From Candidatus Levyibacteriota bacterium (GTDB lineage: Bacteria > Patescibacteriota > Microgenomatia > Levybacterales > UBA12049): DNA of 64,000 nt. The stretch spans positions 317,681 to 381,680 of the forward strand of contig CAWBPM010000003.1 in the NCBI GenBank assembly GCA_963790825.1, written 5' to 3'. The position numbers were made by a program, and so were the translations under genes. Under the pieces are notes generated by a model. The model searched no databases and was not told where the DNA came from. It worked only from the letters and a program-made list of their open reading frames with translations. Shown in pieces: positions 6,194 to 50,429 of this stretch; positions within the stretch are counted from its first letter, which is position 1; each line of letters starts with the position of its first letter.

Positions 6194-6225
6194 GTGTTCG
6201 CGCAGCTGACTTTTCGTCTCTTTAC

Positions 6226-8346: not shown

Positions 8347-8431
8347 TCATTGAAAATTGCCATTGGTTCTGAGCGTAGCCAAGTTAAGCTTGGCGGAGTT
8401 GAAGGAAAAATTGGATTTTGAAAATTTATAT

Positions 8432-8508: not shown

Positions 8509-8509
8509 T

Positions 8510-9116: not shown

Positions 9117-9169
9117 TGTCTTATTTTAGCAAATTATACTCTTTAAAACTATAAAGCCGTTTTTTCTTC

Positions 9170-9282
9170 TCAAAAAGTTTTGGGCCTCTTTTTAAAAAGA
9201 CGCAGGAAATATAAGAGTTTGCTCGCCTCGCTGCGAAGCAGGATACTTTCCCGGCAGAAAGTATAAAAATAAGAGTTTTGTC
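9170..9282. repeat. Hairpin-containing intergenic repeat, copy C, permuted order. Hairpin-1-like cctctttttaaaaagacgcagg at 9185-9206. AAGAGTTTG at 9213. Hairpin 2 tactttcc-cggc-agaaagta at 9245-9264. AAGAGTTTTG at 9271-9280.
   Basis: Seen directly. Confidence 0.6.
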
Positions 9283-9442
9283 CATTCTGCTCTAAACACA
9301 AAGATAACAGGGTCCGGCCCAAACCTTTAATCCAGAAAACCACATGTCCCGATGATTCCGCCATCCGGAACAAATCTGTTATGTGCCAGAATACGCTCCC
9401 GTTCAGCTTGACATTAATTTAATTTAATACAATAATCTCTAC

Positions 9443-10081: not shown

Positions 10082-10096
10082 TGTTCCTGGCTTTGA

Positions 10097-10579
10097 CTAC
10101 GGTGTGACCTTACCCGCGCGTAGGATAGCCGAATTCAGTTCAACCGGGTATTCGACATCCAGGATCGTATCTCCACGTTCGGGGTAAAACTCATCCCAGC
10201 GACAGACTGACCTTACGATATGTGAACAATTAGGATCATCCATCTCCTGTAAAAGTTCCTCACCCCCTCCGGCAACAGCTTCTTCTCTGCTGAGTACCTC
10301 AGACCCTTTATAAAAATGGCGGGTGGTCTCATGATGCTCGGAACCGGCTATAGTTTCACCATCTATGGTACCTCTGTATATCCAGTATTTTTCCAGCGCA
10401 AATGTTGAGGCAGCTTGTTCGGCAATTTCATTAAGGGATTTTTCTCCAAGAAAAACTACTGTATCCGCTTGGGGACGACTAAGATTGTACCCTGTACCGC
10501 AAAGACGGACCGCCCAGACTTTTTGAACTTCGACACAGACCGGGTTGTTCGGCGGATTTTTTATTATTGATTCCTTCAT
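10097..10579 (-). CDS. hypothetical protein (about 50% GC)
   Basis: 160-aa ORF. No motif. Confidence 0.4.
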   Translation of the reverse strand: MKESIIKNPPNNPVCVEVQKVWAVRLCGTGYNLSRPQADTVVFLGEKSLNEIAEQAASTFALEKYWIYRGTIDGETIAGSEHHETTRHFYKGSEVLSREEAVAGGGEELLQEMDDPNCSHIVRSVCRWDEFYPERGDTILDVEYPVELNSAILRAGKVTP

Positions 10580-10782
10580 TTAATTTAATATATCGCGTGG
10601 ACAATATAACAAAAGCGCTATGAATTGTCAAAACTATAAGTCAAAGTGGGTGTAGTCTCCACCCTCCGGTGATTTAGCTTTGCACTTGTTTTAGAAGCTA
10701 AATTTTTGTAATTTGATATGCATGACGGGTAGTTTACCAGGCTGTGTGCGGATTGAAAGAAAAATGCTAAAATAGGGCTCAT

Positions 10783-11352
10783 ATGTTAGAAGGGTTTACT
10801 GAAAGTGAACGAAGAGCTTTAGAACGGCTCAGACGCAGGACGCAAGAATTGTCTCCAATTGAGAAAGAACGATTAAGGCAAAGAAAAGAGGGGTATAGTA
10901 GTCCCGTAAATACTAGGGATATTGATCCGCTTCGTGATGTAATAGCTGCTTATACTGCATTAAATACGTGGATGCGGAAAGAAGCCGGAGATATGACTAC
11001 TACTTCGGAGGGTGTGTTGATTAAAAAAAGCATTCAACGACAAACTCCGGCAGGAATGGTAGAAGTAGTGCAGCATTTTAACCAGCCATATAGCCCAATT
11101 TATGTCACTTCGATGACAACGGGAAGACAGGGCATTTCACAGGAAGACTCCTTTACGCTTAATAGTGCAAGTTTTTTCGATTTGCGGGAGAGAAAAAGCA
11201 GTACCGGAAAAGTAACTACTTACTCAGAAATGTATCTTGCTGTATCCGGAGACCTTTCAGCCCAAAATATGACGTATGGGCAACGAAAGGCAGTTTTTGC
11301 TATCCACCAAATAATTATTTCAATTGTAGCTCCTCATAATCCTTCCGGGTAA
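10783..11352 (+). CDS. hypothetical protein
   Basis: 189-aa ORF. No motif. Confidence 0.4.
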   Translation: MLEGFTESERRALERLRRRTQELSPIEKERLRQRKEGYSSPVNTRDIDPLRDVIAAYTALNTWMRKEAGDMTTTSEGVLIKKSIQRQTPAGMVEVVQHFNQPYSPIYVTSMTTGRQGISQEDSFTLNSASFFDLRERKSSTGKVTTYSEMYLAVSGDLSAQNMTYGQRKAVFAIHQIIISIVAPHNPSG

Positions 11353-11441
11353 AGAGCGGAAAAGAACAAAGAAAAAGTAACTTATAGCGTAATTTTCCCA
11401 TTTATGCTGATATATTTTCTAAAAAGGGTTTAATTTTATAA

Positions 11442-12317
11442 TTAGTAAGTCTTAAAAGAAGTCCTATTTTTTTTCACTCTCCTGTAAACTTCTATAGGAG
11501 TAACTTTGGGTATAGCGGCTGCTGCCAATACTGCCGCAGGAATTAGTCCTATTAATTTTTCCCTGGATACAATTCGGGACTTATCATCAATAAGCTCGCC
11601 TCTATTCGTATACCGGTTATACGCCGAATATAAATTAGCTACTATTTGCGCTGTGTCCAAAGCCGGCTGCCGTTCAGGCATGGCTCCACTGGCAGTATTC
11701 AGAAATATTCTTCCGATTCTGGAACCCGGAAAAGCCAGTACGTTAGTGCCCACTTCGCGCACTTCGTGTCCGTCAAGCCACATAGTCAATTCTCTGACTA
11801 TTGTAGGCAGAGATGTCGTGAGTGCAACGCCGTCTGCTGCCAGCATTCCCGGTAAATCGTTTCTTTCGGCTGCGGATTTGCTTCGCAATAATGCAAGGAA
11901 TGATTCCTGTAATCTGTCCGTGGTTACATCCAGTACTGCACCAAAAGCTTTATTATGCTTTCCCGGTGTTTCTTTCTCAATGATTCCGGCTACTCCTCCA
12001 TCAACTGCATCACAAGCATAGCCCAGCATTTGTAAAACTAAGCTTAACCACCACATGACCTTTCTGTCTTTTTTTGCTTTTTTATTTTCGCTTTCCATGA
12101 TTACTCCGCCAATACCGACGGAGACGAAGCCTGCAAGGGTAATTTCATTCGGTGTAGCGCCCGGGATTACTTCATGCAGATGCCGGCTTATTGAATTTAC
12201 CGGTCTTTTGAATATCTTTCTAAATGGAGAATTCTTTCCGGCATGTCCGGCGAAAGGTGATTCGGACTCAATTTTCTTCATGGCTGGTAATATACTATAA
12301 CTGAGAGAATTTTGCAA
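11442..12317 (-). CDS. CDP-alcohol phosphatidyltransferase family protein. The start is probably the internal Met near 12281.
   Basis: Signature D-x2-DG-x2-A(G)-x8-G-x3-D-x3-D: CDAVDGGVAG...GAVLDVTTD. Membrane helices. Confidence 0.55.
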   Translation of the reverse strand: MQNSLSYSILPAMKKIESESPFAGHAGKNSPFRKIFKRPVNSISRHLHEVIPGATPNEITLAGFVSVGIGGVIMESENKKAKKDRKVMWWLSLVLQMLGYACDAVDGGVAGIIEKETPGKHNKAFGAVLDVTTDRLQESFLALLRSKSAAERNDLPGMLAADGVALTTSLPTIVRELTMWLDGHEVREVGTNVLAFPGSRIGRIFLNTASGAMPERQPALDTAQIVANLYSAYNRYTNRGELIDDKSRIVSREKLIGLIPAAVLAAAAIPKVTPIEVYRRVKKNRTSFKTY

Positions 12318-12338
12318 AGAGTTTTGTTTCTTTTGTAG
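12312..12338. repeat. AAGAGTTTTG-family repeat, copy E (tttgcaaagagttttgtttcttttgtag)
   Basis: tttgcaaagagttttg is shared with 8466-8480. aagagttttgtttcttttg is shared with 6173-6191. Confidence 0.6.
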
Positions 12339-12370
12339 AAAAAGAACAGGAGAAATAGTAATTTAATAAC

Positions 12371-13108
12371 CTATCTCTTTTTTCTTCCCCCTCCCCGATT
12401 TCTTAAATTGATATAGACTTGCTGTATTACGCCCAAAAGCAACATCGTCCCGGCGTCAACCGAATTAGCATAATTAAATAAGGGAGGCTGGACTCCTGTT
12501 GCCATAATTGCGACGTCAATTACCGCGATACCTAAACATGCATTTCTTAAGAGTCTGGCTACGGTGACATCTTTACTTTCATCCTTCCTTTTCTTTGAAT
12601 TTACCACAGTTGTTTCGATATAAGGAAATAACACTGTCGTTGATTTTACACTTTCTCTTTCCGCTTTCCTTCTTTCAAGAGTTGCTTTGATTATTGTTTT
12701 TTGTTCCTCACTAACTTCAGGATCTATGGGTAGTCTATCTAAAATTGTAATCGCCGTATCAAAGTCGGGTGGAGTCAGTTCGGCTTTATGAAATTTAGCA
12801 AATTCTTTTATGTCCTTACTGTTATTTATAAGACGGGCACCTGCTTCTACTTGTTGTTTCAGTTGAAAATTTATTCTGCCTACCACAGAGGGATCGATTT
12901 GTAAATTTTGTCCGAGTACATCATACAAGGCTAATTTTGTTGTTCCGTAAAATTCGGGAGCTCGGGGTGTGGCTTTTTCCACAGCTAAATCGGCTGACCC
13001 GGAATTTACAGCAGTATTGTCTGATTGCCCACTCGACTGTCCTGTTGCATCCGGATGTGGTTCAATTAAATGTCGAGGGGAAAGACGACCATGTTCTACT
13101 AATGGCAT
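12371..13108 (-). CDS. hypothetical protein
   Basis: 245-aa ORF. C-terminal hydrophobic segment. No motif. Confidence 0.4.
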   Translation of the reverse strand: MPLVEHGRLSPRHLIEPHPDATGQSSGQSDNTAVNSGSADLAVEKATPRAPEFYGTTKLALYDVLGQNLQIDPSVVGRINFQLKQQVEAGARLINNSKDIKEFAKFHKAELTPPDFDTAITILDRLPIDPEVSEEQKTIIKATLERRKAERESVKSTTVLFPYIETTVVNSKKRKDESKDVTVARLLRNACLGIAVIDVAIMATGVQPPLFNYANSVDAGTMLLLGVIQQVYINLRNRGGGRKKR

Positions 13109-13196
13109 CTTGAGGGAATTATACTAGGGGTTGGTATAATTTGCAATTATCTCTTTTTATGAGACTTTTGCAGCTAATTTTTTTCGATTCATAATT

Positions 13197-14111
13197 TCAG
13201 ACGGTTTTTTCTATTTGCTTCTCTGTTTCAAACTTCCTATAAGCTTTAAGTTTAGTTTGCAAAACCTGTGAGATAAACTCACGGTAGTCAAGGGGATGGA
13301 AAGCGAGGATATTTTTCGTTATTGTTTCGCGTGTGACGTGAGGACGCATATATCGTTTCTGCAGAATTTTTGCACCAACTTCAAACAAACGCAATAAAAA
13401 CGTAGCGGATTTACTAAGTTTAGTTGACATCTTATGAACCATCTTTTTGCGCCTAATTTTTAAACAATTGGGCATCCAGAACGTTACCCAGGAGTTGGCT
13501 TTTATAAATTTTTTGTAGGTGTCGTCCCGATCAAAAAGCGGCAGGAGTTGTACTACTTCGTGCGCACTGTACATATCCTGCCGGTTCAGAGGAAGATGAA
13601 GTGCGGATTCGTCTATCAGCATGTTTAAACAAATCTTATTTGCAGTTTTTTTCCGACTCGTTCGTTTTCTGCGAAGTCCTTTCATCTGAAGTATGCTAAG
13701 CAGGCATAATCTGCTAATCCATAACGTCCCCCTAGCCGCAATAATAAATAAATCAATGTCATCCTCCGGCTCTGCATTTAACATCGCGACACTTCCGCTG
13801 ATGCCTATCAGTTTAACTGTGGGAATTTTGCCTAAAAAGCGAATAAGTTTCTTTGCTTGATATACTTTTTTCTTGCTTTCTTTCTGTCTTTCAGCCCGAA
13901 TCTGCAAGGTAATTGCCTGGTCCCGCGGCGCATACCACCCGCGGCGCCGAACAAGTAGGAATGATAGTGCGCTGAGCGAATCTGCTACATTCTTTTTTGT
14001 AAATTTGTGAGAACTTAAAACATAGCGCCAGATTTCAGATTGAGACAGCGGATAGCGAAACATACTGCTATAGACAATCGTCCTTAGAACTACTTGAGAA
14101 TTATTTTCCAT
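13197..14111 (-). CDS. hypothetical protein with Pol-beta-like nucleotidyltransferase motif
   Basis: GISGSVAMLNAEPEDDIDLFI (GS...DxD). Confidence 0.45.
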   Translation of the reverse strand: MENNSQVVLRTIVYSSMFRYPLSQSEIWRYVLSSHKFTKKNVADSLSALSFLLVRRRGWYAPRDQAITLQIRAERQKESKKKVYQAKKLIRFLGKIPTVKLIGISGSVAMLNAEPEDDIDLFIIAARGTLWISRLCLLSILQMKGLRRKRTSRKKTANKICLNMLIDESALHLPLNRQDMYSAHEVVQLLPLFDRDDTYKKFIKANSWVTFWMPNCLKIRRKKMVHKMSTKLSKSATFLLRLFEVGAKILQKRYMRPHVTRETITKNILAFHPLDYREFISQVLQTKLKAYRKFETEKQIEKTV

Positions 14112-15577: not shown

Positions 15578-17002
15578 ATGAAAAAAACAAAAATATATAT
15601 CATGGACACGGTTATCAATTATAAAAAAATTATTTATGTCTTTTTTTGGTTTTTTCTGGGAGTAATTCTTGGTCTTTTCTTCTTTTTCAGCTTTTTATTT
15701 ATTTATTACCAAAATACTTATGCAAATAAAGTTTATCCCGGTGTTTTTGTGAACGGTATGGATTTTGGCGGAAAGACACAAAATGAAGTCAGACAATTTT
15801 TTGCCGGGAGAAATGCTTCATTTTCAGATACAAAATTTGTCTTTTCTGATAATACACACATCGCATCCGCTTCTGCTAATTACCTGGAATTTGGCTACGA
15901 TCAGAATCTTATTTCCCAGCAAGTTTACACTATCGGCAGATCTGACAGTTTACTGTCTAATATCAGCCTTCTCGTACAAGCGTATATTAACGGCATCAAC
16001 CTTCCCCCGTCTTTCCATTACTCCGATAACCAGCTTACCCGCGTTCTTACACTGATTATTAAACAGATAAATATAAAACCTGTTGATGGACTGTTTACTT
16101 TTAGCGGTGGAAGGGTATCGGCTTTCCGTCTCGCCCAGGACGGACAGGAGGTAGACATAGCCAGTATACAAAATAAACTTATGGACAGTGCATCTCTTAT
16201 GGCAAGCGGCAGAGAGAAAACAATTCTTATTCCCCTAACGATTAATACACTAAAACCGGCAGTAGCGAATGACAAGGTAAATAATTTGGGTATTAAAGAA
16301 TTGCTGGCGAGCGGTACTTCGTTATTTTTTGGTTCAATTGCAAATCGTATTTATAACATTACCCTGGCTGCGACCCGATTAAACGGTGTGCTTATTCCGC
16401 CCAACCAGGTTTTTTCCTTTGATCAAGCACTGGGTGATATTTCGGCTTTCAGCGGGTATAAACAAGCTTATGTTATTCAAAATGGCCATACTGTTTTAGG
16501 AGACGGCGGCGGCGTCTGTCAGGTTTCAACTACGTTTTTCCGCGCAGTCCTAAATGCCGGTTTTCCTATCGTCGAACGCCATGCTCACGCTTACAGAGTG
16601 CATTATTACGAGGAGGATTCAGGTCCGGGCATTGATGCGGCTGTCTATTCTCCGACTGTTGATTTAAAGTTTAAAAATGACAGCGGAAATTATTTGTTAA
16701 TCCAATCAATTGTCGATCCGGCAAATGACAGATTAACATTCCAATTGTACGGAACTAAAGACGGGAGAGAAGTTACTATCGGTAATCCTGTTATTGTGTC
16801 CCAAACCCCGGCTCCGCCTCCCCTATACCAGGATGACCCGGCGCTTCCTAAGGGCACGGTCCAGCAAACAGATTTCCAAGCCGACGGTGCATCTGTTTAC
16901 TTTAAAAGGGAAGTTAAGCAAAACGGAAAAATAATTATTTCCGATAAATTTGTTTCAAATTACCAACCGTGGCAAGCGGTCTATTTGAGAGGAACACAAT
17001 AA
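15578..17002 (+). CDS. VanW family protein
   Basis: C-terminal VanW signature ...GDGGGVCQVSTTFFRAVLNAGFPIVERHAHAY... N-terminal TM. Confidence 0.7.
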   Translation: MKKTKIYIMDTVINYKKIIYVFFWFFLGVILGLFFFFSFLFIYYQNTYANKVYPGVFVNGMDFGGKTQNEVRQFFAGRNASFSDTKFVFSDNTHIASASANYLEFGYDQNLISQQVYTIGRSDSLLSNISLLVQAYINGINLPPSFHYSDNQLTRVLTLIIKQINIKPVDGLFTFSGGRVSAFRLAQDGQEVDIASIQNKLMDSASLMASGREKTILIPLTINTLKPAVANDKVNNLGIKELLASGTSLFFGSIANRIYNITLAATRLNGVLIPPNQVFSFDQALGDISAFSGYKQAYVIQNGHTVLGDGGGVCQVSTTFFRAVLNAGFPIVERHAHAYRVHYYEEDSGPGIDAAVYSPTVDLKFKNDSGNYLLIQSIVDPANDRLTFQLYGTKDGREVTIGNPVIVSQTPAPPPLYQDDPALPKGTVQQTDFQADGASVYFKREVKQNGKIIISDKFVSNYQPWQAVYLRGTQ

Positions 17003-33140: not shown

Positions 33141-33211
33141 CGGGGAATAGTATAGCGGTAGTACGCCGCGCTGGGGGTGCGGTAGCGGGAGTTCAATTCT
33201 CCCTTCCCCGA
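33141..33211 (+). tRNA. tRNA-Pro (anticodon GGG), no encoded CCA
   Basis: Acceptor CGGGGAA/TTCCCCG. Anticodon stem ccgcg/tgcgg with loop cTGGGgg. T-arm gggag-TTCAATT-ctccc. Discriminator A. Confidence 0.75.
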
Positions 33212-33215: not shown

Positions 33216-34364
33216 AGAAGCGTATCAAAAATGGCAGTTAGAAATTAAAAAAACGTTGGCAGGACAACGTCGTGTTTTTTAGTCATACTTACCCCTGTTT
33301 TCCCGTTCATGTATCTAAATTTACCTCTGCAATCAGTGTATTTAGTAAAACGTCGTTTCAGGATATATCCGTTAAACCATAATCTAGCATGAGTTAGGGA
33401 TTGGAATGAACGAAGCGAGAAAAGCCGGGCTTCAAGATGACCATTTAAGCCTTCAATCATATTTGAGGTAATAGGTGCTCGCGGTATATTCCTGTAGGCT
33501 GTAAGTTCCGGTTTGTATTTCTCAATATTTGTCAGTATAGATAGACAGAGAGGATCCGTATGATAGTCTTTGTAAAGAGCAAATAACTTTTTATTCATAG
33601 CATCATCTGATAGTTTTTCAGTGAGTATATCCTCAATTCTTCTCATAAAGGGTTTATAGGTAGTATCTGATCTGACCTTGAGGTTCCCTCTGATATTTTC
33701 TTTGAAATGGTTAAAGCAGGTTTGAATCTTAACCTCCGGAAAGCTGTTTCTGGCAGCCAGCTTAAGATTAGTATTATCATCACAAACTAATAATTCTATA
33801 TATCTATTTAGAATTCTAAAGATAGAGAAATACGTTGCCCAGGCTGAATAGTTTTCAGAAGGTGCAAGGATAAATACAGGGATATCATGTTTGAAATAAT
33901 CAATTCCCCAAAGCAGTGCATAATCATATTCAAATCCTTTGATATTAAAATACTTCCCATCGCAGACATAGATATTGGAAAATCTATTACAATACTTAAA
34001 GCTAAACTTATTATTATCAGGCAGCTTTAGCAGTGCTTCCTCACATACTCTCCAGGCTGTCATGGAAGAGGTATCATACTTTATAGCTAGTTTTCGAAAG
34101 GATAAACCATCCAAATGATCATTCAATATTGCTTTTGAATCCAGATGAATTGTCTTAATGGAAAAATATATTACGCACTTTTTACATTTATAGCGAATGG
34201 AGTTTCCTCGTTTTGTATGACGGATAACAGACCTTGTTGATTGACACGTGGGGCATTTGTATTTCTTCATACTGAAAGTACTTTACGTATACCCCATCTT
34301 TTACTTGTTTATATTGCAATGTCAAGTAATACTACCTATTGCAACTGCCATTTTTGATACGCTG
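33216..34364 (-). mobile_element. IS element (IS1595-family-like) with perfect 20-bp terminal inverted repeats (33220-33239 GCGTATCAAAAATGGCAGTT; 34343-34362 AACTGCCATTTTTGATACGC)
   Basis: TIRs read directly. A single transposase ORF lies inside. TCCCCGACACT (the tRNA 3-prime end) is present at both outer flanks (33205-33215 and 34365-34375). Confidence 0.7.
33245..34270 (-). CDS. transposase with N-terminal zinc ribbon (IS1595-like DDE family)
   Basis: CPTCQS...CKKC zinc finger. Acidic residues in VCDGKYFN, LVCDDNTNLK, FNHFKENIRG. Confidence 0.55.
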   Translation of the reverse strand: MKKYKCPTCQSTRSVIRHTKRGNSIRYKCKKCVIYFSIKTIHLDSKAILNDHLDGLSFRKLAIKYDTSSMTAWRVCEEALLKLPDNNKFSFKYCNRFSNIYVCDGKYFNIKGFEYDYALLWGIDYFKHDIPVFILAPSENYSAWATYFSIFRILNRYIELLVCDDNTNLKLAARNSFPEVKIQTCFNHFKENIRGNLKVRSDTTYKPFMRRIEDILTEKLSDDAMNKKLFALYKDYHTDPLCLSILTNIEKYKPELTAYRNIPRAPITSNMIEGLNGHLEARLFSLRSFQSLTHARLWFNGYILKRRFTKYTDCRGKFRYMNGKTGVSMTKKHDVVLPTFF

Positions 34365-40735: not shown

Positions 40736-42463
40736 TTAGGGTGATTGAAACTGAAGAGGTTCATTATTCAGAATTTGCCTATAAATGTAATCAGTCGTTT
40801 CATCAGGAAGAAGTGTCTTGCCTTTTCCCGCTGCCACAAGCGCCTCTTTCTTATTATGTAGTCTATATTCGTTAATTGCCAGAACTCCCCACAGTCTCCC
40901 ATTAGTAGGATAGCTTTGCAGGGCTTCTTTAACGAGCTTTATCGCCTCCTTTGGATTATTGTGGAATGTGAGTAAATCTGCCAAATTTTCATATGACATA
41001 AGTAAAGCATTTGTGAACCTGGTACCTTTGGAGTGTTGTATCGCTTTATAATAATAATCTTCAGCTTTTTGTGGATCATTCAGACCGTCATATACTCTCG
41101 CGAGATCAAAAAGATTATCAGCGTAGGGATACATTTCTACTGACTTTTTGTAATGATTCAGTGCTTCATTGTATTGCTGCTGGGAGAAATAAGTATTAGC
41201 AAGAAATGTTTCCGTCTCGAAATTATCCTCTATTTTACTGTCATGAGTAAAAAGTGTAGTATCGTCATACCAATTGGCACTTCGTACCATTGTTCTTGCA
41301 GAGAAAACAACAAGGATTGCGACAATACTAATTGTAGCTATTTTGCTAAATTTCTTGTTTTGAGAAGTTATCTCATGTGTTCCAACACCGATTATTCCTA
41401 GTAAACCGACTATAGGAAAATAAAACCAGTGATCTGCAACTGTCATATTTAATGGGATAATCTGCAAATGGAAAAAAAGCCCTGCCAGAAACCATATAAG
41501 AAAGAAGAGAAATATCGGAAAGTCTTTTTTGTTTGTTTTCAATATGTATCTTCCGAGTAATGCTAGAAGAGAAAAGAATAATAAATCTAGAAAAAGCGGC
41601 AAGTAAAAGTTTTGAAAATCCATCGCTGTAACAACCCACTGTTGATTAACTGCCAGTTGTACAGGTAAAAAAAATGTTTTTATATAATAGAAAATAATTG
41701 CCGGAATATTGATTATACGCGCTATAAGCGTTAGCTTATCAATAGGAACCAAGACTGATTTCCCGATACCTATTCCCGTCCAAAACCTCATAAGGTAAAA
41801 AAGAAAGACTGGTATTGATAACGCAATGAAGGGCAAAATAAATTTCCTTTTGAACAAAAAACGATAGAGTAAAATAATAGTGAGAAATAAAATACCCGTT
41901 TCTTTTGAAAGTATTGATAGAAAAAGTAAACCACTTACTGCAATAAACCTGATAAGAGTTATTTTCTCTTTTAAGCTTAAAAGAAGTGCCATGCTGCCAA
42001 AAAGGAAAAAGAGAAGATTATCAAAAGCTCCAATGTAGGAGACGGACTCAACCTGTATTGGTAATACGAGAAACAACAGAGAAAGACATAAAGAAACTTT
42101 TTTAGTAAAAAATCGAGTGAAGATAAGAAATAGTAAGATAGAATTGACGCTATGTAGAGTTATTTGGATAAAATGATAAAAAAATGGTGCTGTACTAAAT
42201 AGCGCATATAAGATGGCACTGTAAAGAGCAGTAACAGGCCGATATTGTCCCAACTGGTTAAATGTATTTTGTAAGCTAAATATAGCAAAAGTATGCCCCC
42301 AAGGATTATTGATAATTAACGTATTGTCTTCCCAAACAAACCCGTTAAAAAGTATATTGAAGTAAACAATAAATCCAACGATGATAATAATACGAATCGC
42401 TTTAAAGGTAGTTAGAGGAATAAAGAATTGCTTAAAAGTTAATTCCTGTTTTTGCTCTTGCAT
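40736..42463 (-). CDS. TPR-repeat membrane protein, GT39/PMT/ArnT-like N-terminal polytopic domain (paralog 1 of 3)
   Basis: N-terminus MQEQKQELTFKQFFIPLTTFKAIRIIIIVGFIVYFNILFNGFVWED is nearly identical to the 43494..45236 and 55922..57667 products. About 11 TM helices. C-terminal TPR-like repeats. Confidence 0.6.
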   Translation of the reverse strand: MQEQKQELTFKQFFIPLTTFKAIRIIIIVGFIVYFNILFNGFVWEDNTLIINNPWGHTFAIFSLQNTFNQLGQYRPVTALYSAILYALFSTAPFFYHFIQITLHSVNSILLFLIFTRFFTKKVSLCLSLLFLVLPIQVESVSYIGAFDNLLFFLFGSMALLLSLKEKITLIRFIAVSGLLFLSILSKETGILFLTIILLYRFLFKRKFILPFIALSIPVFLFYLMRFWTGIGIGKSVLVPIDKLTLIARIINIPAIIFYYIKTFFLPVQLAVNQQWVVTAMDFQNFYLPLFLDLLFFSLLALLGRYILKTNKKDFPIFLFFLIWFLAGLFFHLQIIPLNMTVADHWFYFPIVGLLGIIGVGTHEITSQNKKFSKIATISIVAILVVFSARTMVRSANWYDDTTLFTHDSKIEDNFETETFLANTYFSQQQYNEALNHYKKSVEMYPYADNLFDLARVYDGLNDPQKAEDYYYKAIQHSKGTRFTNALLMSYENLADLLTFHNNPKEAIKLVKEALQSYPTNGRLWGVLAINEYRLHNKKEALVAAGKGKTLLPDETTDYIYRQILNNEPLQFQSP

Positions 42464-42566
42464 AATACAATCTTATAATAGCAAAAATCTCGGGTCAGGG
42501 TTTAATACCTGTCGGTGGTTTTTTGTAATAATACTTTGTTTAAATACCATGAGTAGATTTTTGTTC
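42464..42566 (-). pseudogene. Remnant of a map 3-prime end: translation ...VFKQSIITKNHRQVLNP versus the Map C-terminus ...VFERSIAITKNGTRILTP
   Basis: DNA 42473-42535 aligns with 57675-57737 (upstream of paralog 3 and overlapping the real map 3-prime end). Confidence 0.55.
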
Positions 42567-42572
42567 ATGGTT

Positions 42573-43487
42573 TTATTTTCCGCTTGTAAAGCGGGCGAAA
42601 ATGCCGGTTGAAAGTAACCGTTTTCCGCTTTTTTCCTGAAGCGCAATTTCTCCGACTTCTATTTCTCCGGGGATATCACCAACTGCATCTTGCAAAACAT
42701 TCTCTAGCATTAAGCTACTCATAGACATAGCATAGGCATTGATGATAATAAAAAGCGGGTGGCTTGACAGAATCTTCCGCGTATCATGCAACAGTTTAGG
42801 GAAACTGACCGGAAAATTCCACACTTCACCATCCGGTCCGTGTCCATAAATTGGCGGATCCATAATAAGACCATCATATATATTCCCCCGTCTTACTTCG
42901 CGCTCGACAAATTTTACCACATCGTCCAGGATCCAACGGATTGGCTTATTTGTAAGATTTGACGCTTCCTGGTTTTCTCTGGCCCAATTGATTGCAGGGC
43001 GCGAGGCATCGACGTGTGTTACCTCAGCTCCCATAGACGCGCAAACCAAACTCGCAATTCCCGTATAACCAAACAGATTCAATATTTTTATTTTTTTATC
43101 TTGCGGCTGTGCGTTTTTAATTCTCTCCCGTATAAAATCCCACTGTATAACTTGCTCCGGGAATATTCCCGTATGTTTAAACGCTGTAAGCCGGGCAAAA
43201 AATGTTATTTCCTGATATTTCATTAGCCATTTTTCAGGCAGCGGGTTTTTTTGCAGCCATTTTCCTTTTGCTCCTTTTTCGTCTGTCTTTACATAAACAG
43301 CATCTGCGCTGTCCCATTCTTTTTGCGGTAAAGTCGGCAGCCAGATACACTGCGGATCAGGCCGACTTAAAAGAAATTTACCAAACTTCTCAAGCCGTCT
43401 TCCGTTTCCGCTATCGAGAAGAGAATAGCCATCTAAACCAGGGGTTGTAAGAATAGTCATATTATTATTTCTATAATAACAGATCAA
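42573..43487 (-). CDS. class I SAM-dependent methyltransferase (RlmI/YwbD-like, COG1092)
   Basis: SAM motif I LNLFGYTGIASL. DASRPAINWAREN. Motif IV-like MDPPIYGHG. Confidence 0.6.
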   Translation of the reverse strand: MICYYRNNNMTILTTPGLDGYSLLDSGNGRRLEKFGKFLLSRPDPQCIWLPTLPQKEWDSADAVYVKTDEKGAKGKWLQKNPLPEKWLMKYQEITFFARLTAFKHTGIFPEQVIQWDFIRERIKNAQPQDKKIKILNLFGYTGIASLVCASMGAEVTHVDASRPAINWARENQEASNLTNKPIRWILDDVVKFVEREVRRGNIYDGLIMDPPIYGHGPDGEVWNFPVSFPKLLHDTRKILSSHPLFIIINAYAMSMSSLMLENVLQDAVGDIPGEIEVGEIALQEKSGKRLLSTGIFARFTSGK

Positions 43488-43493
43488 TAGAAC

Positions 43494-45236
43494 CTATTGT
43501 TGTATTTTAATTTCTTGATTATTTGTAATCTGCTTTAGGACATATAGCGCCTCTGAGTTAGGAGATAGTTGATATGCTTTGGTCGCAATTTCAAGAGCAT
43601 TTTGTCTATTATGTAAATAATATTCACAATAAGCCAAGTATAACTGCGGTCTTTGAGATTGGGGATAACGCCCAACCCCTTCTTCATAAACTATTCTTGC
43701 TTCGTCTAATCGTCCTTCATTAACATACAGTTGTCCAAGTTTTTCATATCCCATCTCTAGTCCTCCAACCTCAACGGCCTTTTTAAAATTTTTCTCTGCA
43801 AGTTTTAAATTCCCTTTAGAGTAATAGGTTGCTCCAATATTAATCCAATTTCTCTCTTCTGAAGGATTAAGACTGGCAGCCTTGTTAAAATATTTTAAAG
43901 CCTCGTCATATTTTCCCATGCTCAGGTATTCATTGCCAAGTAAGCCATTAAGATAGACGTTATCTTTCTCAAGTACAATATCATGCGTATACAAAGAATA
44001 ACCGGTTCTCCAATTTTCGTTACGTACGATCGTTCTTACTGAAAGAATCAATAAAATTATTAAACTTAGCATTATAAGAATTTTTTGTTTAATTTTAATT
44101 CTTTCGATACATATCCCAATTAATCCAAGAAGTCCAATGACGGGGAAGTAAAACCATCGATCAGCCACTGTAAAGTCCAGGGGTATAATTTGCATAAGAA
44201 GTAATGACCCAATAAGAAACCAGAAAGAGAAAAAGAGAAATGTGGAAAATGTTTTTTTTGACATTCGATATGAATAAAGACCGAGAAATGCTATACAAGC
44301 AAAAAATCCTACATCTACTAATAAAGGGATATAAAACTCGACTGGGGTTATTGATGTAACAAGCCAATCTTGATGAGTAATTAGTGTCTTTGGGGAAAAA
44401 AATATTCCTAAATAATAAAAAATAACTTTTGGAATATTTATGAATCTAATATCTGCTGCTGCCCGAGAAATTGACGAAGGTTCTATAGCAAATGACACAT
44501 ATTGAGCAGCTTGCTTAAAAAAGAGATAGATTCCTACAGCTATACTTACTGCAATAAGATAGTTAAGAAACTGTTTTCTATCAAACAAAAGCAATCTAAA
44601 GAATAGAAGCAGAATAAATAAAACACCAGTAACTTTTGACATTAAAGATAAAAAGATAAGTAAGGATATGAGAATAATTTTTTTCCAAGAAGTATGTTTT
44701 CCCTCAGATCTTTGATAGTAAAATAATGCTAATAATCCAAAAAAAAGGAAAAGCACATCCTGTAAACTAGAGATATATGCTACAGTTTCCTGGTTTATCG
44801 GGTGAACTAAAAATATGAGAGATAAAAATAGAGAAATCCTTTTAGAAAAGAATGATAAAAATAATGAAAATAGTAATAATGTATTAACTATATGCAATAA
44901 AAGCTGGAAAGAATGGAAAAAAAACGCAATGTTACCAAAGAAGGTATATAAAAATGAAAAAAAGATAAGCATAAGCGGTCTATAATACCACCCAGTTAAT
45001 ATTCCTCCACCGCTGCTTACGCTTGAATTTGTTTGGAATAGAAGTATAGGAATATTACTGATCGAATGTATCGTTGAATTTGTAAGTATTTGTGTACCAT
45101 CATCAGCCACAAACCCATTAAAAAGCATGTTGAAGTAAACTAGAAATCCAACGATTACGATAATATGAATCACTCTGAGAGTAGTTAGGGGGATAAAGAG
45201 ACGCTTGAAGGAAAATTTGTGTCTTTGCTCTTGCAT
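43494..45236 (-). CDS. TPR-repeat membrane protein, GT39/PMT-like (paralog 2 of 3)
   Basis: MQEQRHKFSFKRLFIPLTTLRVIHIIVIVGFLVYFNMLFNGFVADD. Polytopic. C-terminal TPRs. Confidence 0.6.
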   Translation of the reverse strand: MQEQRHKFSFKRLFIPLTTLRVIHIIVIVGFLVYFNMLFNGFVADDGTQILTNSTIHSISNIPILLFQTNSSVSSGGGILTGWYYRPLMLIFFSFLYTFFGNIAFFFHSFQLLLHIVNTLLLFSLFLSFFSKRISLFLSLIFLVHPINQETVAYISSLQDVLFLFFGLLALFYYQRSEGKHTSWKKIILISLLIFLSLMSKVTGVLFILLLFFRLLLFDRKQFLNYLIAVSIAVGIYLFFKQAAQYVSFAIEPSSISRAAADIRFINIPKVIFYYLGIFFSPKTLITHQDWLVTSITPVEFYIPLLVDVGFFACIAFLGLYSYRMSKKTFSTFLFFSFWFLIGSLLLMQIIPLDFTVADRWFYFPVIGLLGLIGICIERIKIKQKILIMLSLIILLILSVRTIVRNENWRTGYSLYTHDIVLEKDNVYLNGLLGNEYLSMGKYDEALKYFNKAASLNPSEERNWINIGATYYSKGNLKLAEKNFKKAVEVGGLEMGYEKLGQLYVNEGRLDEARIVYEEGVGRYPQSQRPQLYLAYCEYYLHNRQNALEIATKAYQLSPNSEALYVLKQITNNQEIKIQQ

Positions 45237-46330: not shown

Positions 46331-47359
46331 TTGAGTAAACTTAAGTCTTTGACATTTTTCCCTGCCTCATGTAGCATGCAAGCTGATATGAAAAATACGA
46401 ATTTTTGGCTTAAGTTAGTAAAGCCGATTTTGGCCCTGGCGCCTATGGAAGATGTGACAGATACGGTCTACCGGCAAATTATTGCACAAGCCGGAAAACC
46501 CGATGTGTTTTTTACAGAATTCACGAGTGTTGAAGGAATTTGTTCAAAAGGACGAGACCATATAATTAAACGCTTGCAATTTAGCGAAAAAGAACGGCCG
46601 ATTGTCGCACAAATCTGGGGGCTAAAACCTGAAAATTTTTATCAATCTGCAAAGTTGATACATGAATTAGGCTTTGACGGTATTGATTTAAATATGGGTT
46701 GCCCTGAAAAATCAGTGATTAAACGGGGATCATGTGGTGCGCTTATCAAAAATCCTGCACTTGCAAAAGAAATTATCCAGGCAACGAAAGAAGGAGCTGG
46801 TGGACTTCCTGTTAGTGTTAAAACAAGAATCGGTTTTGAGGAAATCCAAACCGAAGAATGGGTTGAATTTTTGTTGTCGCAAAATATCCAAGCGTTAACT
46901 TTGCATTTAAGAACTGTTAAAGAAGAATCAGAAGTTCCTACTCATTGGGAAGAAATTACAAAAGCAGTACGAATTCGAAATGATAAAAAATTATCAACTT
47001 TGATTTTAGGGAATGGCGATATAAAAAGCCGTGAGGAAGCGTTGGAAAAAGTAAATTTGTATGGTATTGACGGCGTGATGATCGGCAGAGGTATTTTTCA
47101 TAATCTTTGGCTGTTTAATAAAGAGATAAATATTTCAGATATTACTCCTCAAATGAAACTCACTATGCTTTTGGAACATGCCAAGCTTTTTCAAAAAACC
47201 TGGGGAAAGACGAAAAATTTCTCCGTTCTTAAACGTTTTTTTAAAGCGTATGTATCCGGTTTTACCCACGCGGCAGAACTGAGAGTAAAACTCATGGAGA
47301 CAAAAAATATTGAAGAAGTAATATCCTTCCTCGAAACAGTTCTAAAAAACCAAGTTTAG
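46331..47359 (+). CDS. dus: tRNA-dihydrouridine synthase (Dus family). The true start is probably an internal Met at 46376 or 46388.
   Basis: LAPMEDVTDTVYR. DLNMGCPEKSVIKRGSCGALIKNP (catalytic Cys loop). TIM-barrel FMN-binding pattern. Confidence 0.8.
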   Translation: MSKLKSLTFFPASCSMQADMKNTNFWLKLVKPILALAPMEDVTDTVYRQIIAQAGKPDVFFTEFTSVEGICSKGRDHIIKRLQFSEKERPIVAQIWGLKPENFYQSAKLIHELGFDGIDLNMGCPEKSVIKRGSCGALIKNPALAKEIIQATKEGAGGLPVSVKTRIGFEEIQTEEWVEFLLSQNIQALTLHLRTVKEESEVPTHWEEITKAVRIRNDKKLSTLILGNGDIKSREEALEKVNLYGIDGVMIGRGIFHNLWLFNKEINISDITPQMKLTMLLEHAKLFQKTWGKTKNFSVLKRFFKAYVSGFTHAAELRVKLMETKNIEEVISFLETVLKNQV

Positions 47360-47361
47360 TC

Positions 47362-48183
47362 TCAAAAAAGTACCTTTTCCTTCCCTAAATTATTATAGAG
47401 AGTAATCCACTCTTTAAGTGTTAAATGGCTTGGTTTTATATCTTTCGCCAACGAAAGTTTTTGAAAAACTTTGCTTATCGTACCCTTAGAGAAAAATTTT
47501 TGCAAATTTTGTTTAGCAGGTAATCCCTGTCCGAAACCGTAAGTCACAAACTGTTGATACTTTTTCTTTTCAGACATTGGCAGTAAAGGATTTTCTTTCA
47601 AGGTAAAACGAAATATTACTGTTCTTACTTTTGGTATTGGAGTAAAGTCGGTCTGATTGAAATGGTGATAAATTGAGAAATCAAACCATGGTTTGTGCAT
47701 AACAGAGAATTGGTTTTCCTTATATGGGGCTGCCAGGCGGTATGCAAGTTCTTTCATCATTACCAGATAACAATCTTGTGGAGGATTAGTATTATCAATA
47801 AGTTTACGAGTGATTTTCCCTTCAATAGTAAAGGGAATATTTGCAAATACTTTATAGGGAAACTTTGGCAGAGGTCTGTCTAAAAAATCTTCATGATATA
47901 AGGTGAGATTTTCTGCACTATTAAATTTACTGCTAAGATAGTTGTACCAATGCGTATCCAATTCTACTGCGATAACATGTCTTGCTTGTCGAATTAGTTG
48001 TTCTGTGATAATTCCTTTACCTGGACCGATTTCGAGAACAAGATCATTTTTAGTAATAGAGGAATTGCCTACAAGTTTACTTACTAACTTGCGGCTGTGA
48101 AGAAAGTTTTGTGATAGAAGCTTCCGCTGTAAGTTGTACATAGCGGAACCTCCCTGTGAACATGTTAGCCATAATTCACTCAC
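47362..48183 (-). CDS. rRNA adenine N6-methyltransferase, Erm-like (KsgA/Erm superfamily). The probable start is Met-15, about 48141.
   Basis: QNFLHS. LEIGPGKG. VIAVELD. KVFANIPF. FTPIPKVRTVIFRF. The C-terminal domain resembles Erm rather than KsgA. Confidence 0.6.
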   Translation of the reverse strand: MSELWLTCSQGGSAMYNLQRKLLSQNFLHSRKLVSKLVGNSSITKNDLVLEIGPGKGIITEQLIRQARHVIAVELDTHWYNYLSSKFNSAENLTLYHEDFLDRPLPKFPYKVFANIPFTIEGKITRKLIDNTNPPQDCYLVMMKELAYRLAAPYKENQFSVMHKPWFDFSIYHHFNQTDFTPIPKVRTVIFRFTLKENPLLPMSEKKKYQQFVTYGFGQGLPAKQNLQKFFSKGTISKVFQKLSLAKDIKPSHLTLKEWITLYNNLGKEKVLF

Positions 48184-48216
48184 AATTATATCATATCAGG
48201 AGTTATTTACAAAATT

Positions 48217-49423
48217 CCCGAGTTCTAGAAACGATCGCACCCCCCTGTAAGGTTTAATTAGGTACAATTCACTTCCTGAGGTAAGAGAGGGGGTGAATTA
48301 TGAAACACAAAAAGATAACGCAAACGGAACGGGAATTGTTAGGCCAGTGGAAGAAGGAAGGAGTAGCGAATAAAGAAATCGCCAGAAGACTGTCTCGTCC
48401 CGTCTTGACTATTCGTCGTGAGTTGAAAAGGAATAAAACCAAAGTTGCTGTTGGCAAAGAGTGGGAATGGATCTACGAACCAATCCATGCCCAGCATGTC
48501 GCGATGGAACGGAAACAAAATGCATGGTTGGCTAAAGAGCCGTTGAAAAACAAAAAAGTATACAAATACGTCATTGACCATCTTCGCGAGAGTTGGAGCC
48601 CTGAACAAATATCAGGAAGGCTCAAACATGAAGATCATCCGGATGATAAGTCGTGGCATATCTGTATGGAAACCATATACGCTTTTATCTACAAAGAAAA
48701 AACTGATATAACAAAACAAGGAATTAAACAACAAAGCATATTTAATAAACATCTGGCTGGAAAAGACAGAACGGTGGTAACAGTAACGGACTTTGACCGA
48801 CCATTATACGAGTATTTGAGGCGGAAACAGACAAGACGACGGAAAAGAAACGGCAGGAAAGTTCATAGGTCACATATACCTGATCGCGTCAGTATTCATA
48901 AAAGGCCATTGATTGTCGCCAGACGAAAACAATTTGGTCACTGGGAAGGAGACAGTATTGTTGGAGATAAACACGCCTCAGGGTTACATACAGAATATGA
49001 ACGGGTTTCAAGCCTTACCCGATTTGAGCGGATGGTTCGGATAACAGCGGCAGATACAGTTATTGCCGGTAAGAAAATATTTAGTCCCTTCCCTGAAAAA
49101 GCAAGGCGATCAACAACGCTTGATAACGGACCGGAAAACCATGGACATACAGAGCTTAAGAAAGACCTATCCATGCAGACATATTTTGCAGATCCATATT
49201 CCTCCTGGCAACGAGGAGGAAATGAGAATGCAAATCTTTGGATCAGATACTACTTTCCAAAAGGGACTGATTTTAGTACAATCTCAGATGAAGAATTAAA
49301 AGACGTTCAGGATGAAATAAACAACCGTCCCAGAAAACGTCTTAAATTCAGAACGCCTCAGGAAGTATTTTCTGAGTACCTCAATAAACCCTAAAGGGGT
49401 GCATTAGTTCCTAGAATACGGGA
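48217..49423 (+). mobile_element. IS30-family insertion sequence (about 1.2 kb) with about 27-bp imperfect terminal IRs. IR-L 48217-48245 cccgagttctagaaacgatcgcacccc. IR-R 49397-49423 ggggtgcattagttcctagaatacggg. Possible 3-bp TSD ATT.
   Basis: IRs read directly. A single IS30 transposase ORF lies inside. Confidence 0.7.
48300..49394 (+). CDS. IS30 family transposase
   Basis: N-terminal HTH. DDE region HWEGDSIVG...TLDNGPE...GGNENANLWIRYYFPKG... Confidence 0.85.
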   Translation: MKHKKITQTERELLGQWKKEGVANKEIARRLSRPVLTIRRELKRNKTKVAVGKEWEWIYEPIHAQHVAMERKQNAWLAKEPLKNKKVYKYVIDHLRESWSPEQISGRLKHEDHPDDKSWHICMETIYAFIYKEKTDITKQGIKQQSIFNKHLAGKDRTVVTVTDFDRPLYEYLRRKQTRRRKRNGRKVHRSHIPDRVSIHKRPLIVARRKQFGHWEGDSIVGDKHASGLHTEYERVSSLTRFERMVRITAADTVIAGKKIFSPFPEKARRSTTLDNGPENHGHTELKKDLSMQTYFADPYSSWQRGGNENANLWIRYYFPKGTDFSTISDEELKDVQDEINNRPRKRLKFRTPQEVFSEYLNKP

Positions 49424-49439
49424 TTTGTGGTTATCTATT

Positions 49440-50429
49440 TTACTTTGCTGCTTTTTCCAACATTTTTTCTAACTTCCCAATACTACTATCGTCGTAGACG
49501 GAAACAGCCAGGACTTCTTTTTTCAATTTTTTAAGCAAATTTAACTTTTTTTCAATTTCCTCCGGCTCTGCCAGATCGGTTTTTGTAAGTAAGATTATTT
49601 CGGATTTTTCCAAAAGCAATTTATTATATTCTGCAAATTCTTTTCGCACGACCTCGTAGGTCTTTATGGGATCTATATTTTCTACATCAATACAATGAAC
49701 CAATAATTTAGTTTTTTCAATATGTTTCAGAAATTTAATCCCCAGTCCCCGGCCATGACTAGCACCCTCAATAAGACCCGGAATATCGGCAATAATGATT
49801 CCTCCCATCATCCCGAGATTCGGCTCAAGCGTCGTAAACGGATAGTTGGCAATTTTCGGATGAGCATGGGTCAGAAGACTTAGTAAACTGCTTTTTCCGG
49901 CATTTGGCAGTCCGATAAGTCCGATATCGGCGATAAGCCTGAGTTCCAGATGCAGCTTTTTTTCCACACCGGGTTCTCCATATTCAAATTCTGTCGGTGT
50001 TTGGTTTGTTGCGGATTTAAATTCATTATTTCCCCGTCCTCCTTTTCCACCTTTAGCCAATAAAATTTGCTTTTTCGTATCTAAAATCTCATGTGTATTT
50101 CCGTTTTCTTCACTAATACAGGTTCCAACTGGAATCCGAATTGTGAGACTTTGACCGTTCCTGCCATAGAGGTTCTTTCTTTTTCCGCTCACTCCATCTT
50201 CTGCTTTCCATACTTTTTTATACCGGAATATCTGAAGCCCCATGATATCATCTATTCCTTGGACGAAAAGATCGCCGCCGTTTCCGCCGTTTCCACCGTC
50301 TGGACCACCCCTCGGATTTCCTTCATTTTGCCGAAACGTTGCTGCGCCGTTTCCGCCGTTTCCCGCTTTTACCGTAATTGTGACATCATCAATAAGCATA
50401 ATGCGTATTGTATACTCCTCCATAAACAA
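49440..50429 (-). CDS. obg: GTPase Obg (short form without C-terminal OCT/TGS domain)
   Basis: Gly-rich Obg fold (GGNGGNGG...). G1 GLPNAGKSS. G3 DIPG. G4 TKTD. Confidence 0.9.
   Translation of the reverse strand: MFMEEYTIRIMLIDDVTITVKAGNGGNGAATFRQNEGNPRGGPDGGNGGNGGDLFVQGIDDIMGLQIFRYKKVWKAEDGVSGKRKNLYGRNGQSLTIRIPVGTCISEENGNTHEILDTKKQILLAKGGKGGRGNNEFKSATNQTPTEFEYGEPGVEKKLHLELRLIADIGLIGLPNAGKSSLLSLLTHAHPKIANYPFTTLEPNLGMMGGIIIADIPGLIEGASHGRGLGIKFLKHIEKTKLLVHCIDVENIDPIKTYEVVRKEFAEYNKLLLEKSEIILLTKTDLAEPEEIEKKLNLLKKLKKEVLAVSVYDDSSIGKLEKMLEKAAK

Follow-up and report, generated by a model that had tools for sequence, protein, structure and literature searches.

The locus described here raises the question whether an RrnaAD-family methyltransferase gene, located next to an insertion sequence (IS) in a bacterium of the candidate phyla radiation (CPR), encodes a macrolide resistance enzyme of the Erm type or a housekeeping enzyme of the KsgA/RsmA type. 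The gene is found on the reverse strand of a 64,000-nt stretch, in the following called the window, of a Candidatus Levyibacteriota bacterium (GenBank assembly GCA_963790825.1, contig CAWBPM010000003.1, positions 317,681 to 381,680). Given its conserved leader with the ingredients of inducible erm genes, it is best read as a drug-responsive Erm and not as a housekeeping KsgA: with moderate confidence, the product is an Erm-type methyltransferase that would methylate A2058 of the 23S rRNA and protect against macrolides, lincosamides and streptogramin B. The gene appears to form a self-contained chromosomal unit consisting of a sigma-70-type promoter, a near-leaderless upstream open reading frame (uORF), a hairpin over the Shine-Dalgarno (SD) sequence and the start codon, and the enzyme gene itself (Table 1). 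We infer the A2058 target, the resistance phenotype, the sensing of the drug by the uORF and the step from ribosome arrest to enzyme expression.

The open reading frame 47362..48183 (reverse strand) reported in the initial annotation is present and encodes an RrnaAD-family methyltransferase (Pfam PF00398, 148.5 bits). The highest score was obtained with the curated NCBIfam model NF000499 (Erm23S_rRNA_broad) at 227.6 bits (cutoff 212), followed by the KsgA model TIGR00755 at 168.8 bits, which misses the KsgA membership cutoff of 171, and by an Erm42-specific model at 154.7 bits as compared to a cutoff of 600. The score of NF000499 minus that of TIGR00755 is +59 bits for the window protein, −163 and −105 bits for the KsgAs of E. 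coli and Listeria used for calibration, +126 to +144 bits for the validated Erms Erm(42), ErmC and ErmX, and +89 bits for two plasmid relatives (H1 and H2). Ten diverse members of the family score 49-80 bits higher with the Erm model than with the KsgA model. The KsgA cutoff is reached by none of the ten (TIGR00755 range 127.7-164.8) and the Erm cutoff by five, the other five being slightly under it, and the margin of the window protein is small. Due to these intermediate score differences, the family is assigned to the Erm side, of which it is the most KsgA-like branch.

Motif X of the window protein reads SQNF. In all 80 homologs from species-representative genomes of the Genome Taxonomy Database (GTDB) this motif has the form S/T/A/C-Q-N/H-F and in none of them the KsgA-type G, which is carried by the sampled KsgA/Dim1 proteins in the form G-Q-(N/H)-(F/W) (PMC7998614). 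The alignment with Erm(38) and ErmE is nearly gap-free, whereas KsgA of B. subtilis (BsKsgA) can be aligned only with an insertion of 9 residues ahead of beta-4, three additional residues in loop 12 and insertions at the C-terminus. Loop 12 of the window protein is three residues shorter than in BsKsgA and lacks the K-E-Y-G-S-L-S / Y-G-x-L-S segment; in a passage citing Bhujbalrao and Anand, it is named as one of two loops reported to shift KsgA specificity towards Erm (PMC7998614). The S-adenosylmethionine (SAM)-binding and catalytic residues G39, G41, E60, D85, N101, P103 and F104, which correspond to G40, G42, E61, D92, N108, P110 and F111 of Erm38 (PMC8844858), are present and, within the family, show no variation or a conservation of at least 90%. 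Since they are also common to KsgA, these intact residues point to an active enzyme, as predicted here for the window protein, and not to Erm specificity. Three basic residues at the RNA site are needed for activity in ErmC (R112, K133, R134) and Erm38 (R119, R140, R141) (PMC8844858). R112 of the window protein aligns with the first of these and is replaced by Met in BsKsgA, and R135 aligns with the third and is Arg in KsgA, too. The motifs SQNFLHS, EIGPGKG, ELDTH, NIPF and KKYQQFV quoted in the initial annotation could be located, and its 'PKPKV' actually reads PIPKV.

In a neighbor-joining (NJ) tree of 54 sequences with 200 bootstraps, three KsgAs are split from all Erms and the family in 100% of the replicates, and the validated Erms (A, B, C and 42) are found within or beside the window clade. 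The phylogeny with Erm and KsgA references that had been proposed as a check thus places the protein outside the KsgA clade. Genes of 'Candidatus' phyla and Chloroflexota were likewise placed within the Erm radiation and apart from KsgA in earlier work (PMC8914350; PMC11264731). Judged from its sequence, the protein is very probably to be placed with the Erms within the Erm/KsgA family. As far as the family placement is concerned, the Erm interpretation of the initial annotation is hence supported by the hidden Markov model cutoffs, their calibration, motif X, the indels and the tree; the connection to the IS30 element and the idea of a reservoir in recent exchange, which formed part of it, are not.

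It is very unlikely that the gene is the divergent housekeeping KsgA/RsmA of this lineage, dimethylating A1518/A1519 of the 16S rRNA and merely resembling Erm. Such an assignment would agree with the KsgA model score, only 2 bits under the cutoff, and with pairwise comparisons to sequences of the Protein Data Bank, which resulted in 87 bits for Erm(38), 85 for BsKsgA, 82 for ErmE, 73 for ErmAM, 72 for ErmC' and 53 for KsgA of E. coli. Full-length matches are Erm(38), ErmE, BsKsgA and also Erm(42), and the match to ErmC' spans residues 10-202 only. It had been stated initially that the protein matches Erm(C)-type enzymes along its whole length and does not match KsgA/RsmA; both statements have to be dropped, since ErmC' is matched in part and BsKsgA over the full length with a score close to that of Erm(38). 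The AlphaFold (AF2) model (pLDDT 92) has ErmE as its best Foldseek match (E 9e-25), and the KsgA structures are equal to it in TM-score (0.74-0.84). No second RrnaAD gene was found by blastp among the ORFs of the 64-kb window, and no ksgA in 1.34 Mb of related loci when three KsgAs and the window protein served as tblastn queries; these negative results are uninformative because less than one KsgA is expected by chance in the sampled flanks. The roughly one 'erm' match per CPR genome (13,375 in 12,552 genomes; bioRxiv 10.64898/2026.07.13.738296) would also suit a housekeeping gene. All of this is outweighed by the Erm model scores of the protein and its family, which differ in sign from those of true KsgAs, by S instead of G in motif X together with the missing loop-12 segment and other KsgA insertions, by the separate position of the KsgAs in every bootstrap replicate, and by an attenuator-like leader in front of the gene. 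Furthermore, the TIGRFAM-type KsgA is reported among the commonest families near the origin and virB4/dnaA/rpmH in Microgenomatia (PMC12102498), and none of the erm-like homologs seen here is located there. The family also has Chloroflexota members in multi-megabase genomes, and its occurrence among species is patchy and its genomic context variable.

The search for homologs resulted in 2,271 proteins at E <= 1e-10 in a protein database clustered at 90%. The best 120 of these 2,271 have identities of 53% or more, and those with a name originate from Microgenomates-type CPR lineages; homologs are annotated as 23S rRNA dimethyltransferase in IMG, and one as 'Erm' at NCBI. In an exhaustive library about 325 clusters (50% identity, E <= 1e-30) were counted, and at least 536 relatives were detected in the metagenomes of the Joint Genome Institute (JGI). 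Among 185,579 species genomes, 432 relatives were found, which is a minimum, as two peptide patterns were used for the scan; those from CPR are 45-65% identical and a second tier from Chloroflexota 35-42%. Given the thousands of genomes in this lineage, the occurrence is patchy. The gene itself is a new member of an already noticed erm-like group of the CPR, for which 3,077 matches in 4,062 genomes (PMC8651080) and the 13,375 mentioned above were reported. The neighbourhoods differ among all relatives examined, including the closest one (L182, 80% identical), in which yqeY is located upstream and a NUDIX gene downstream. The neighbours are ordinary chromosomal genes, at times acetyltransferases or an APH-family kinase. 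As no neighbourhood is conserved, synteny gives no functional hint and was discarded as a clue.

Some observations on individual relatives may be due to chance: in L096 an APH-family kinase gene (614-1552) is located 1.6 kb upstream of the erm-like gene, and L092 contains two GNAT acetyltransferase genes (10741-11310 and 6374-6916), one of which overlaps the 3' end of the erm-like gene. Several 'binchicken' records of metagenome-assembled genomes titled 'uncultured Gammaproteobacteria' or 'Pseudomonadales' (L003, L007-L010, L012, L013, L017 and others) contain homologs with 52-63% identity and a CPR-type leader; these taxonomic labels are probably wrong.

The analysis of the leader depends on the translation start, for which ATG 48141 is the most likely candidate, and not GTG 48183. 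The latter is located directly 3' of the predicted −10 box and adds 14 codons, resulting in 273 aa. A product of 259 aa from ATG 48141 is indicated by the spacing to the SD, by the N-terminus MY.LRRKL, the opening of almost every homolog, by the gene call on the 418,546-bp NCBI contig, which has the 259-aa form, and by the in-frame upstream extension being open in only 5 of 65 relatives. Thus the frame of the initially described 273-aa product is open, and its length had to be corrected. The 14-codon extension (MSELWLTCSQGGSA, window 48142-48183; MDELWLLCSQGDSA, L182 6001-6042) is used by gene callers and is open in both closest sequences, the window and L182, where it overlaps the −10 box and the uORF. 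Due to this overlap and the missing conservation in the wider family, a start codon too far upstream has probably been chosen in the database entries of 268-273 aa.

Within 47200-49600, TTGTAA-16 nt-TG-n-TATAAT (48212..48185) scores best as a sigma-70-like site, with 10 of 12 matches plus the TG. An ATG uORF in a fixed frame, reading through the main start, was detected in 53 of 65 unique CPR-type upstream regions, as compared to 5 and 8 of 65 in the other frames and 9.7 ± 3.0 (maximum 19) after shuffling; if 1-nt spacer variants are counted, the number increases to 59 of 65. In 44 of 51 relatives a TATAAT-like box is located 8-11 nt (mode 9 nt) before the uORF ATG, and due to this short distance the uORF would be essentially leaderless. 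Substitutions in the 5' part of the uORF are distributed over codon positions 1:2:3 as 47:71:107, those in upstream non-coding sequence of equal length as 154:150:128, all of these being non-independent pairwise counts. The fixed frame and the excess at third positions suggest that the uORF is translated. The peptides are short and hydrophobic (56% in the N-terminal parts, in which M/F/I and T/N are frequent), and their ends just before the main ATG read R-F-R, R-L-R, V-F-R, I-L-R or similar. In the window, the peptide starts with MANMFTGRFR, and its R-F-R sits over the spacer between SD and ATG. The palindrome GAACA...TGTTC within the uORF might have represented a repressor operator; this was rejected, as the palindrome is not found throughout the clade.

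The SD and the start codon are enclosed in a hairpin (−29.5 kcal/mol, z = −3.0) with the pairings GGGAG/CUUCU and UUCCGCU/AGCGGAA, the 3' arms of which are located inside the coding sequence in the Gln-Arg-Lys-Leu codons. In an alignment of 51 sequences, 77.6% of the cells are paired, compared to 43-52% with slid partners, and neither the observed pairing nor the covariation score was reached by any of 500 shuffles. All 48 hairpin cores fold individually. Compensatory changes were found at three pairs, one of which occurs as CG (34), AU (4), GC (3) and UA (2), explained by synonymous changes of an Arg codon that are compensated in the 5' untranslated region.

Inducible erm genes typically combine a leader uORF with a hairpin over the ribosome binding site (RBS) (PMC8298421, PMC11264731). 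In these, an mRNA structure covers the RBS and the arrest of a macrolide-bound ribosome on the leader peptide, at R6-L7-R8 in the case of ErmDL, leads to induction (PMC8298421). The leader was searched for a classical four-segment attenuator and for a leader peptide ending before the RBS; neither was found, the uORF stopping inside the gene. The ermBL2 paper (PMC8274638) offers no earlier example of a leader ORF that overlaps the start, and uORFs and palindromes are sporadic in erm homologs according to a study in whose text the CPR-type leader is not described (PMC11264731). The search in Rfam returned no matching family for the CPR or the Chloroflexota leader. In its compact, near-leaderless form that overlaps the start, the leader represents a novel variation on erm attenuation.

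Chloroflexota homologs (L146, L028, L053, L133, L140, L054, L043 and many others) have a different conserved leader at about −130 to −1. Here, an upstream anti-SD segment, UCUUUUCAAG, pairs with the SD region, CUUGAAAGGA, and this pairing encloses a terminator-like hairpin followed by UUUUUU (…GUCGCA…UGCGGCUUUUUUG…). Some of these leaders contain a short ORF (MSQLALRLFC…) over the U-run. The whole looks like an element of transcription attenuation combined with SD sequestration. The plasmid-borne relatives contain neither the CPR-type nor the Chloroflexota-type leader.

In a drug-responsive Erm of this architecture, the hairpin would hold enzyme translation low as long as no drug is present. 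A ribosome on the uORF would sense the tunnel-bound antibiotic at the peptide with its hydrophobic part followed by R-x-R, and an arrest or abortive event, with the hairpin melted, would raise the expression of the enzyme. A ribosome that arrests while the Phe codon 48148-48146 occupies the P site would lie over SD and ATG, so that expression is not explained by the classical model. Since the uORF crosses SD and AUG and no alternative pairing is available, the mechanism, if drug-responsive, must differ from classical attenuation. Conceivable options are an abortive release on the melted hairpin with re-initiation at the adjacent ATG, a shielding of the mRNA 5' end from decay by the arrested ribosome, or a coupling through unwinding that would be unrelated to the drug. 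Taken further, this CPR clade might possess an undescribed minimal antibiotic sensor, in which the drug-bound ribosome arrests or drops its short peptidyl-tRNA on the opened start and thereby passes the mRNA on to initiation at the enzyme gene, or else shields the 5' end; we regard this as a doubtful, speculative proposal.

Several observations weigh against a drug-responsive Erm. Among the Erm-side sequences tested, the window protein comes closest to KsgA, being just short of the KsgA cutoff, and the pairwise and fold comparisons are equal for KsgA and Erm and do not separate the two. Y134 replaces K133 of ErmC (R140 of Erm38), so that one of the three basic RNA-site residues is missing. The interior of the Erm side of the NJ tree is poorly supported (54% for the family plus the Erm(42) group), and the tree is based on a distance method with only three KsgA references, none of them from CPR. 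As to the leader, the +x+ motif (R-x-R/K) is present in only 20 of 53 uORFs, RNAalifold predicted no consensus structure for the leader alignment or the hairpin core alone, and the conservation of uORF and hairpin is partly forced by the SD and the Arg-Arg-Lys codons. The overlap of the uORF with SD and AUG means that a ribosome arrested at R-F-R would cover the start site. Finally, the one CPR expression study, which excluded genes of the macrolide, lincosamide and streptogramin B class, leaned against a role in resistance (bioRxiv 10.64898/2026.07.13.738296).

An Erm-like paralog with a non-classical role would account for part of these observations. It would methylate A2058 or another rRNA adenine as a housekeeping modification, constitutively or in dependence on growth, and the leader would serve for coupling, autoregulation or the sensing of the ribosome status. 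The profile scores between Erm and KsgA, the unconserved RNA-site residue (PMC8844858), the overlap of uORF and RBS, with which a simple unmasking by arrest fails, the low number of +x+ motifs and the ordinary chromosomal neighbours would all be in line with such an enzyme. It is nevertheless an unlikely explanation, as validated Erms are found within or beside the clade, the cutoff of the curated Erm model is passed, the combination of uORF and RBS hairpin is the one known from inducible erm genes, and the Chloroflexota relatives independently carry an attenuator-like leader with terminator and anti-SD segment. The drug-responsive Erm is therefore retained as the best reading.

The adjoining element is an intact IS30-family insertion sequence, as initially annotated: the transposase, the terminal inverted repeats, which are imperfect and match at 22 of 30 positions, and an ATT target-site duplication are all present. 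In other respects its description had to be revised. The methyltransferase and transposase genes are arranged divergently, head-to-head, instead of convergently, and the distance between the end of the IS and the supported start codon is 75 bp instead of 34 bp. By blastn only the self-match and thus a single copy was found in the window. An identical transposase is encoded on a second contig of 751,017 bp, and in the Logan assembly of sample ERR11594402 the IS30 forms a separate contig of 1,205 bp, while the contig with the methyltransferase gene terminates within the inverted repeat of the IS. The source genome probably comprises about 1.17 Mb in two contigs of 418,546 and 751,017 bp. Due to the second transposase and the separate repeat contig, the element is considered as multi-copy with at least two copies in the genome, and it is probably active. 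With a single transposase with an N-terminal helix-turn-helix domain, a length of about 1.2 kb, imperfect inverted repeats of about 27 bp and a 3-bp duplication, it shows nothing unusual for the IS30 family.

If the IS and one ATT are removed, about 19 nt remain between the obg stop codon and the −35 box of the methyltransferase gene; from this reconstructed empty site it follows that the IS30 landed in the short spacer between both genes, 1 nt before the −35 hexamer. In L182, the closest relative, the same combination of promoter, leader and gene occurs at another location and without an IS, and the homology of L182 to the window, AAATTTTG[A/T]AAATAACTCCTGATATGATATA, is continuous through the insertion point. 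The insertion would cut the gene off from obg read-through and leave promoter and leader intact. The IS30 is a later, incidental simple insertion, functionally unrelated to the methyltransferase, and the initially proposed link between the two does not persist in view of the single insertion with its duplication and the 80%-identical relative without IS. That IS30 and methyltransferase form a mobile resistance unit, with the gene brought, mobilised or activated by the IS, is extremely improbable, even though the IS is intact, occurs at least twice in the genome, ends 1 nt from the −35 box, and an IS30-like gene (29% identity) is located 1.5 kb from the homolog in L006. The IS copy is one-sided and flanked by a perfect 3-bp duplication, as in a simple insertion, and the gene has its own promoter inside the insertion point. 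No composite-transposon bracketing was found in the window with its one IS copy, and in the other loci examined no IS flanking the gene and no linkage of IS and gene could be detected.

Erm-like matches in CPR are counted by the thousands in surveys which are unable to tell resistance genes from ordinary rRNA or DNA methyltransferases. The conserved leader offers independent evidence at the sequence level for a clade that responds to ribosome-targeting antibiotics. Its geometry lies outside textbook attenuation and would represent a new mechanism, if functional. If this holds true, ultra-small episymbionts keep a drug-inducible macrolide resistance, which would point to regular contact with ribosome-targeting antibiotics originating from their hosts or neighbours. 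For the surveillance of resistance the gene is of low concern, as it is chromosomal, the nearest mobile genes are only distantly related and the IS30 is not mobilising it.

Table 1. Coordinates of the methyltransferase locus and of other features, numbered from the first nucleotide of the window.
Feature	Position	Strand	Remarks
Erm-family rRNA adenine-N6 methyltransferase gene	47362..48141	-	259 aa, preferred start ATG 48141
Shine-Dalgarno AGGGAG of the methyltransferase gene	48150..48155	-	direct sequence reading; 6-7 nt 5' of ATG 48141
Hairpin enclosing the start codon	48116..48154	-	5' arms 48154-48150 (overlaps SD) and 48148-48142; 3' arms 48128-48122 and 48120-48116
Upstream ORF, 31 codons	48077..48172	-	MANMFTGRFRYVQLTAEASITKLSSQPQVSK, then stop; out of frame with the methyltransferase, crosses SD and ATG
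-10 box TATAAT with upstream TG (extended -10)	48185..48190	-	12 nt before uORF ATG
-35 box TTGTAA	48207..48212	-	conserved with L182 (TTGAAA)
Terminator-like hairpin and T-run	47312..47332	-	30 nt past methyltransferase stop; pattern scan, weak
IS30-family insertion sequence, 1,206 bp	48217..49422	+	left inverted repeat 48217-48243, right inverted repeat 49396-49422
IS30 transposase, 364 aa, intact	48300..49394	+	NF033563 253.1 bits (cutoff 80); N-terminal HTH_38
Target-site duplication ATT, left copy	48214..48216		
Target-site duplication ATT, right copy	49423..49425		
obg (GTPase Obg/CgtA)	49440..50429	-	TIGR02729 368 bits; same-strand upstream neighbour before IS insertion
tRNA-dihydrouridine synthase (Dus)	46331..47359	+	PF01207 184.5 bits; convergent, ends 2 bp from methyltransferase stop
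Seven ORFs without Pfam match	5311-6174, 6226-6861, 7291-7869, 9443-10081, 11442-12317, 12371-13108, 13197-14111		

The window is a housekeeping stretch containing recA, the RNase Y gene, tsaD, rpoA, secY, rpsI, obg and dus. The terminator pattern scan detected two sites as compared to 1.9 expected by chance, which is not significant alone. Some further features were observed apart from the methyltransferase locus. A Mutator/IS256-like transposase gene with a weak Pfam match (32 bits) at 33245..34270 (reverse strand) adjoins the only tRNA gene of the window (33141..33211); a further mobile element or a site of integration may be present here. The region 268-6174, with a GC content of 31-36% below that of the rest of the window, contains a defence- or mobile-type cluster of a RadC-like JAB protein, a Schlafen-group-3-like helicase, a Fic/DOC protein and a PD-(D/E)XK/Cas4-like nuclease. 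The seven ORFs without Pfam match in 5311-14111 encode 190-300 aa each. A VanW-like protein with a peptidoglycan-binding domain, of the type listed as 'glycopeptide resistance-like' in CPR resistome surveys, is encoded at 15578-17002. In 40736-45236, genes for two TPR proteins (575 and 580 aa, 38% mutual identity) flank that of a SAM-dependent methyltransferase (42573..43487).

Compared to known systems, the best named or mobile matches of the window protein are Erm(42) and the plasmid genes of E. coli (NZ_CP122644.1) and Salmonella (NZ_OR095745.1), with 36-41% identity over 93-95%. The window protein and the Erm(42) group have the SQNFLH form of motif X in common and are located on the same side of the tree. 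The window protein lacks the basic C-terminal tail of about 40 residues of Erm(42), H1 and H2, and the mobile Erm(42)-type genes are located among IS26/IS91/ISVsa3 on conjugative plasmids and have no comparable leader. The 'resistance reservoir' of the initial annotation, understood as recent exchange, is not supported in view of this low identity and of the closest sampled relatives of the mobile genes, which are not from CPR, and no sign of a recent transfer to pathogens was found. CPR as the source of Erm(42) was rejected for the identity of at most 41%. With KsgA/RsmA the protein has the fold, the two-domain architecture, the SAM-binding and catalytic motifs and a similar length in common; it differs from them in S instead of G in motif X, in having no pre-beta-4 insertion and no loop-12 Y-G-x-L-S, and in the attenuator-like leader of its gene.

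The leader resembles that of ErmDL-ermD (also ErmCL and ErmBL) in the short upstream leader ORF and the SD and start codon within a hairpin; in 20 of 53 uORFs an R-x-R (+X+) motif is added, at which ribosomes with a bound macrolide or ketolide can arrest (PMC8298421). Unlike in ErmDL-ermD, the uORF of the window-type leader lacks its own SD, begins 8-12 nt downstream of the −10 box, is out of frame, overlaps the start and stops about 45-65 nt inside the gene. Furthermore, four-segment pairing is not evident, and the leader comprises about 45 nt in contrast to at least 140 nt. In their N-terminal parts, the uORF peptides are comparable to MsrDL (MYLIFM) of msrD, a very short, mostly hydrophobic leader peptide sensing macrolides (PMC10314930). 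MsrDL controls an ABC-F gene via a Rho-independent terminator and stalls at the stop codon, whereas the CPR-type leader is devoid of a terminator; it is the terminator-containing leader of the Chloroflexota relatives that resembles the msrD leader.

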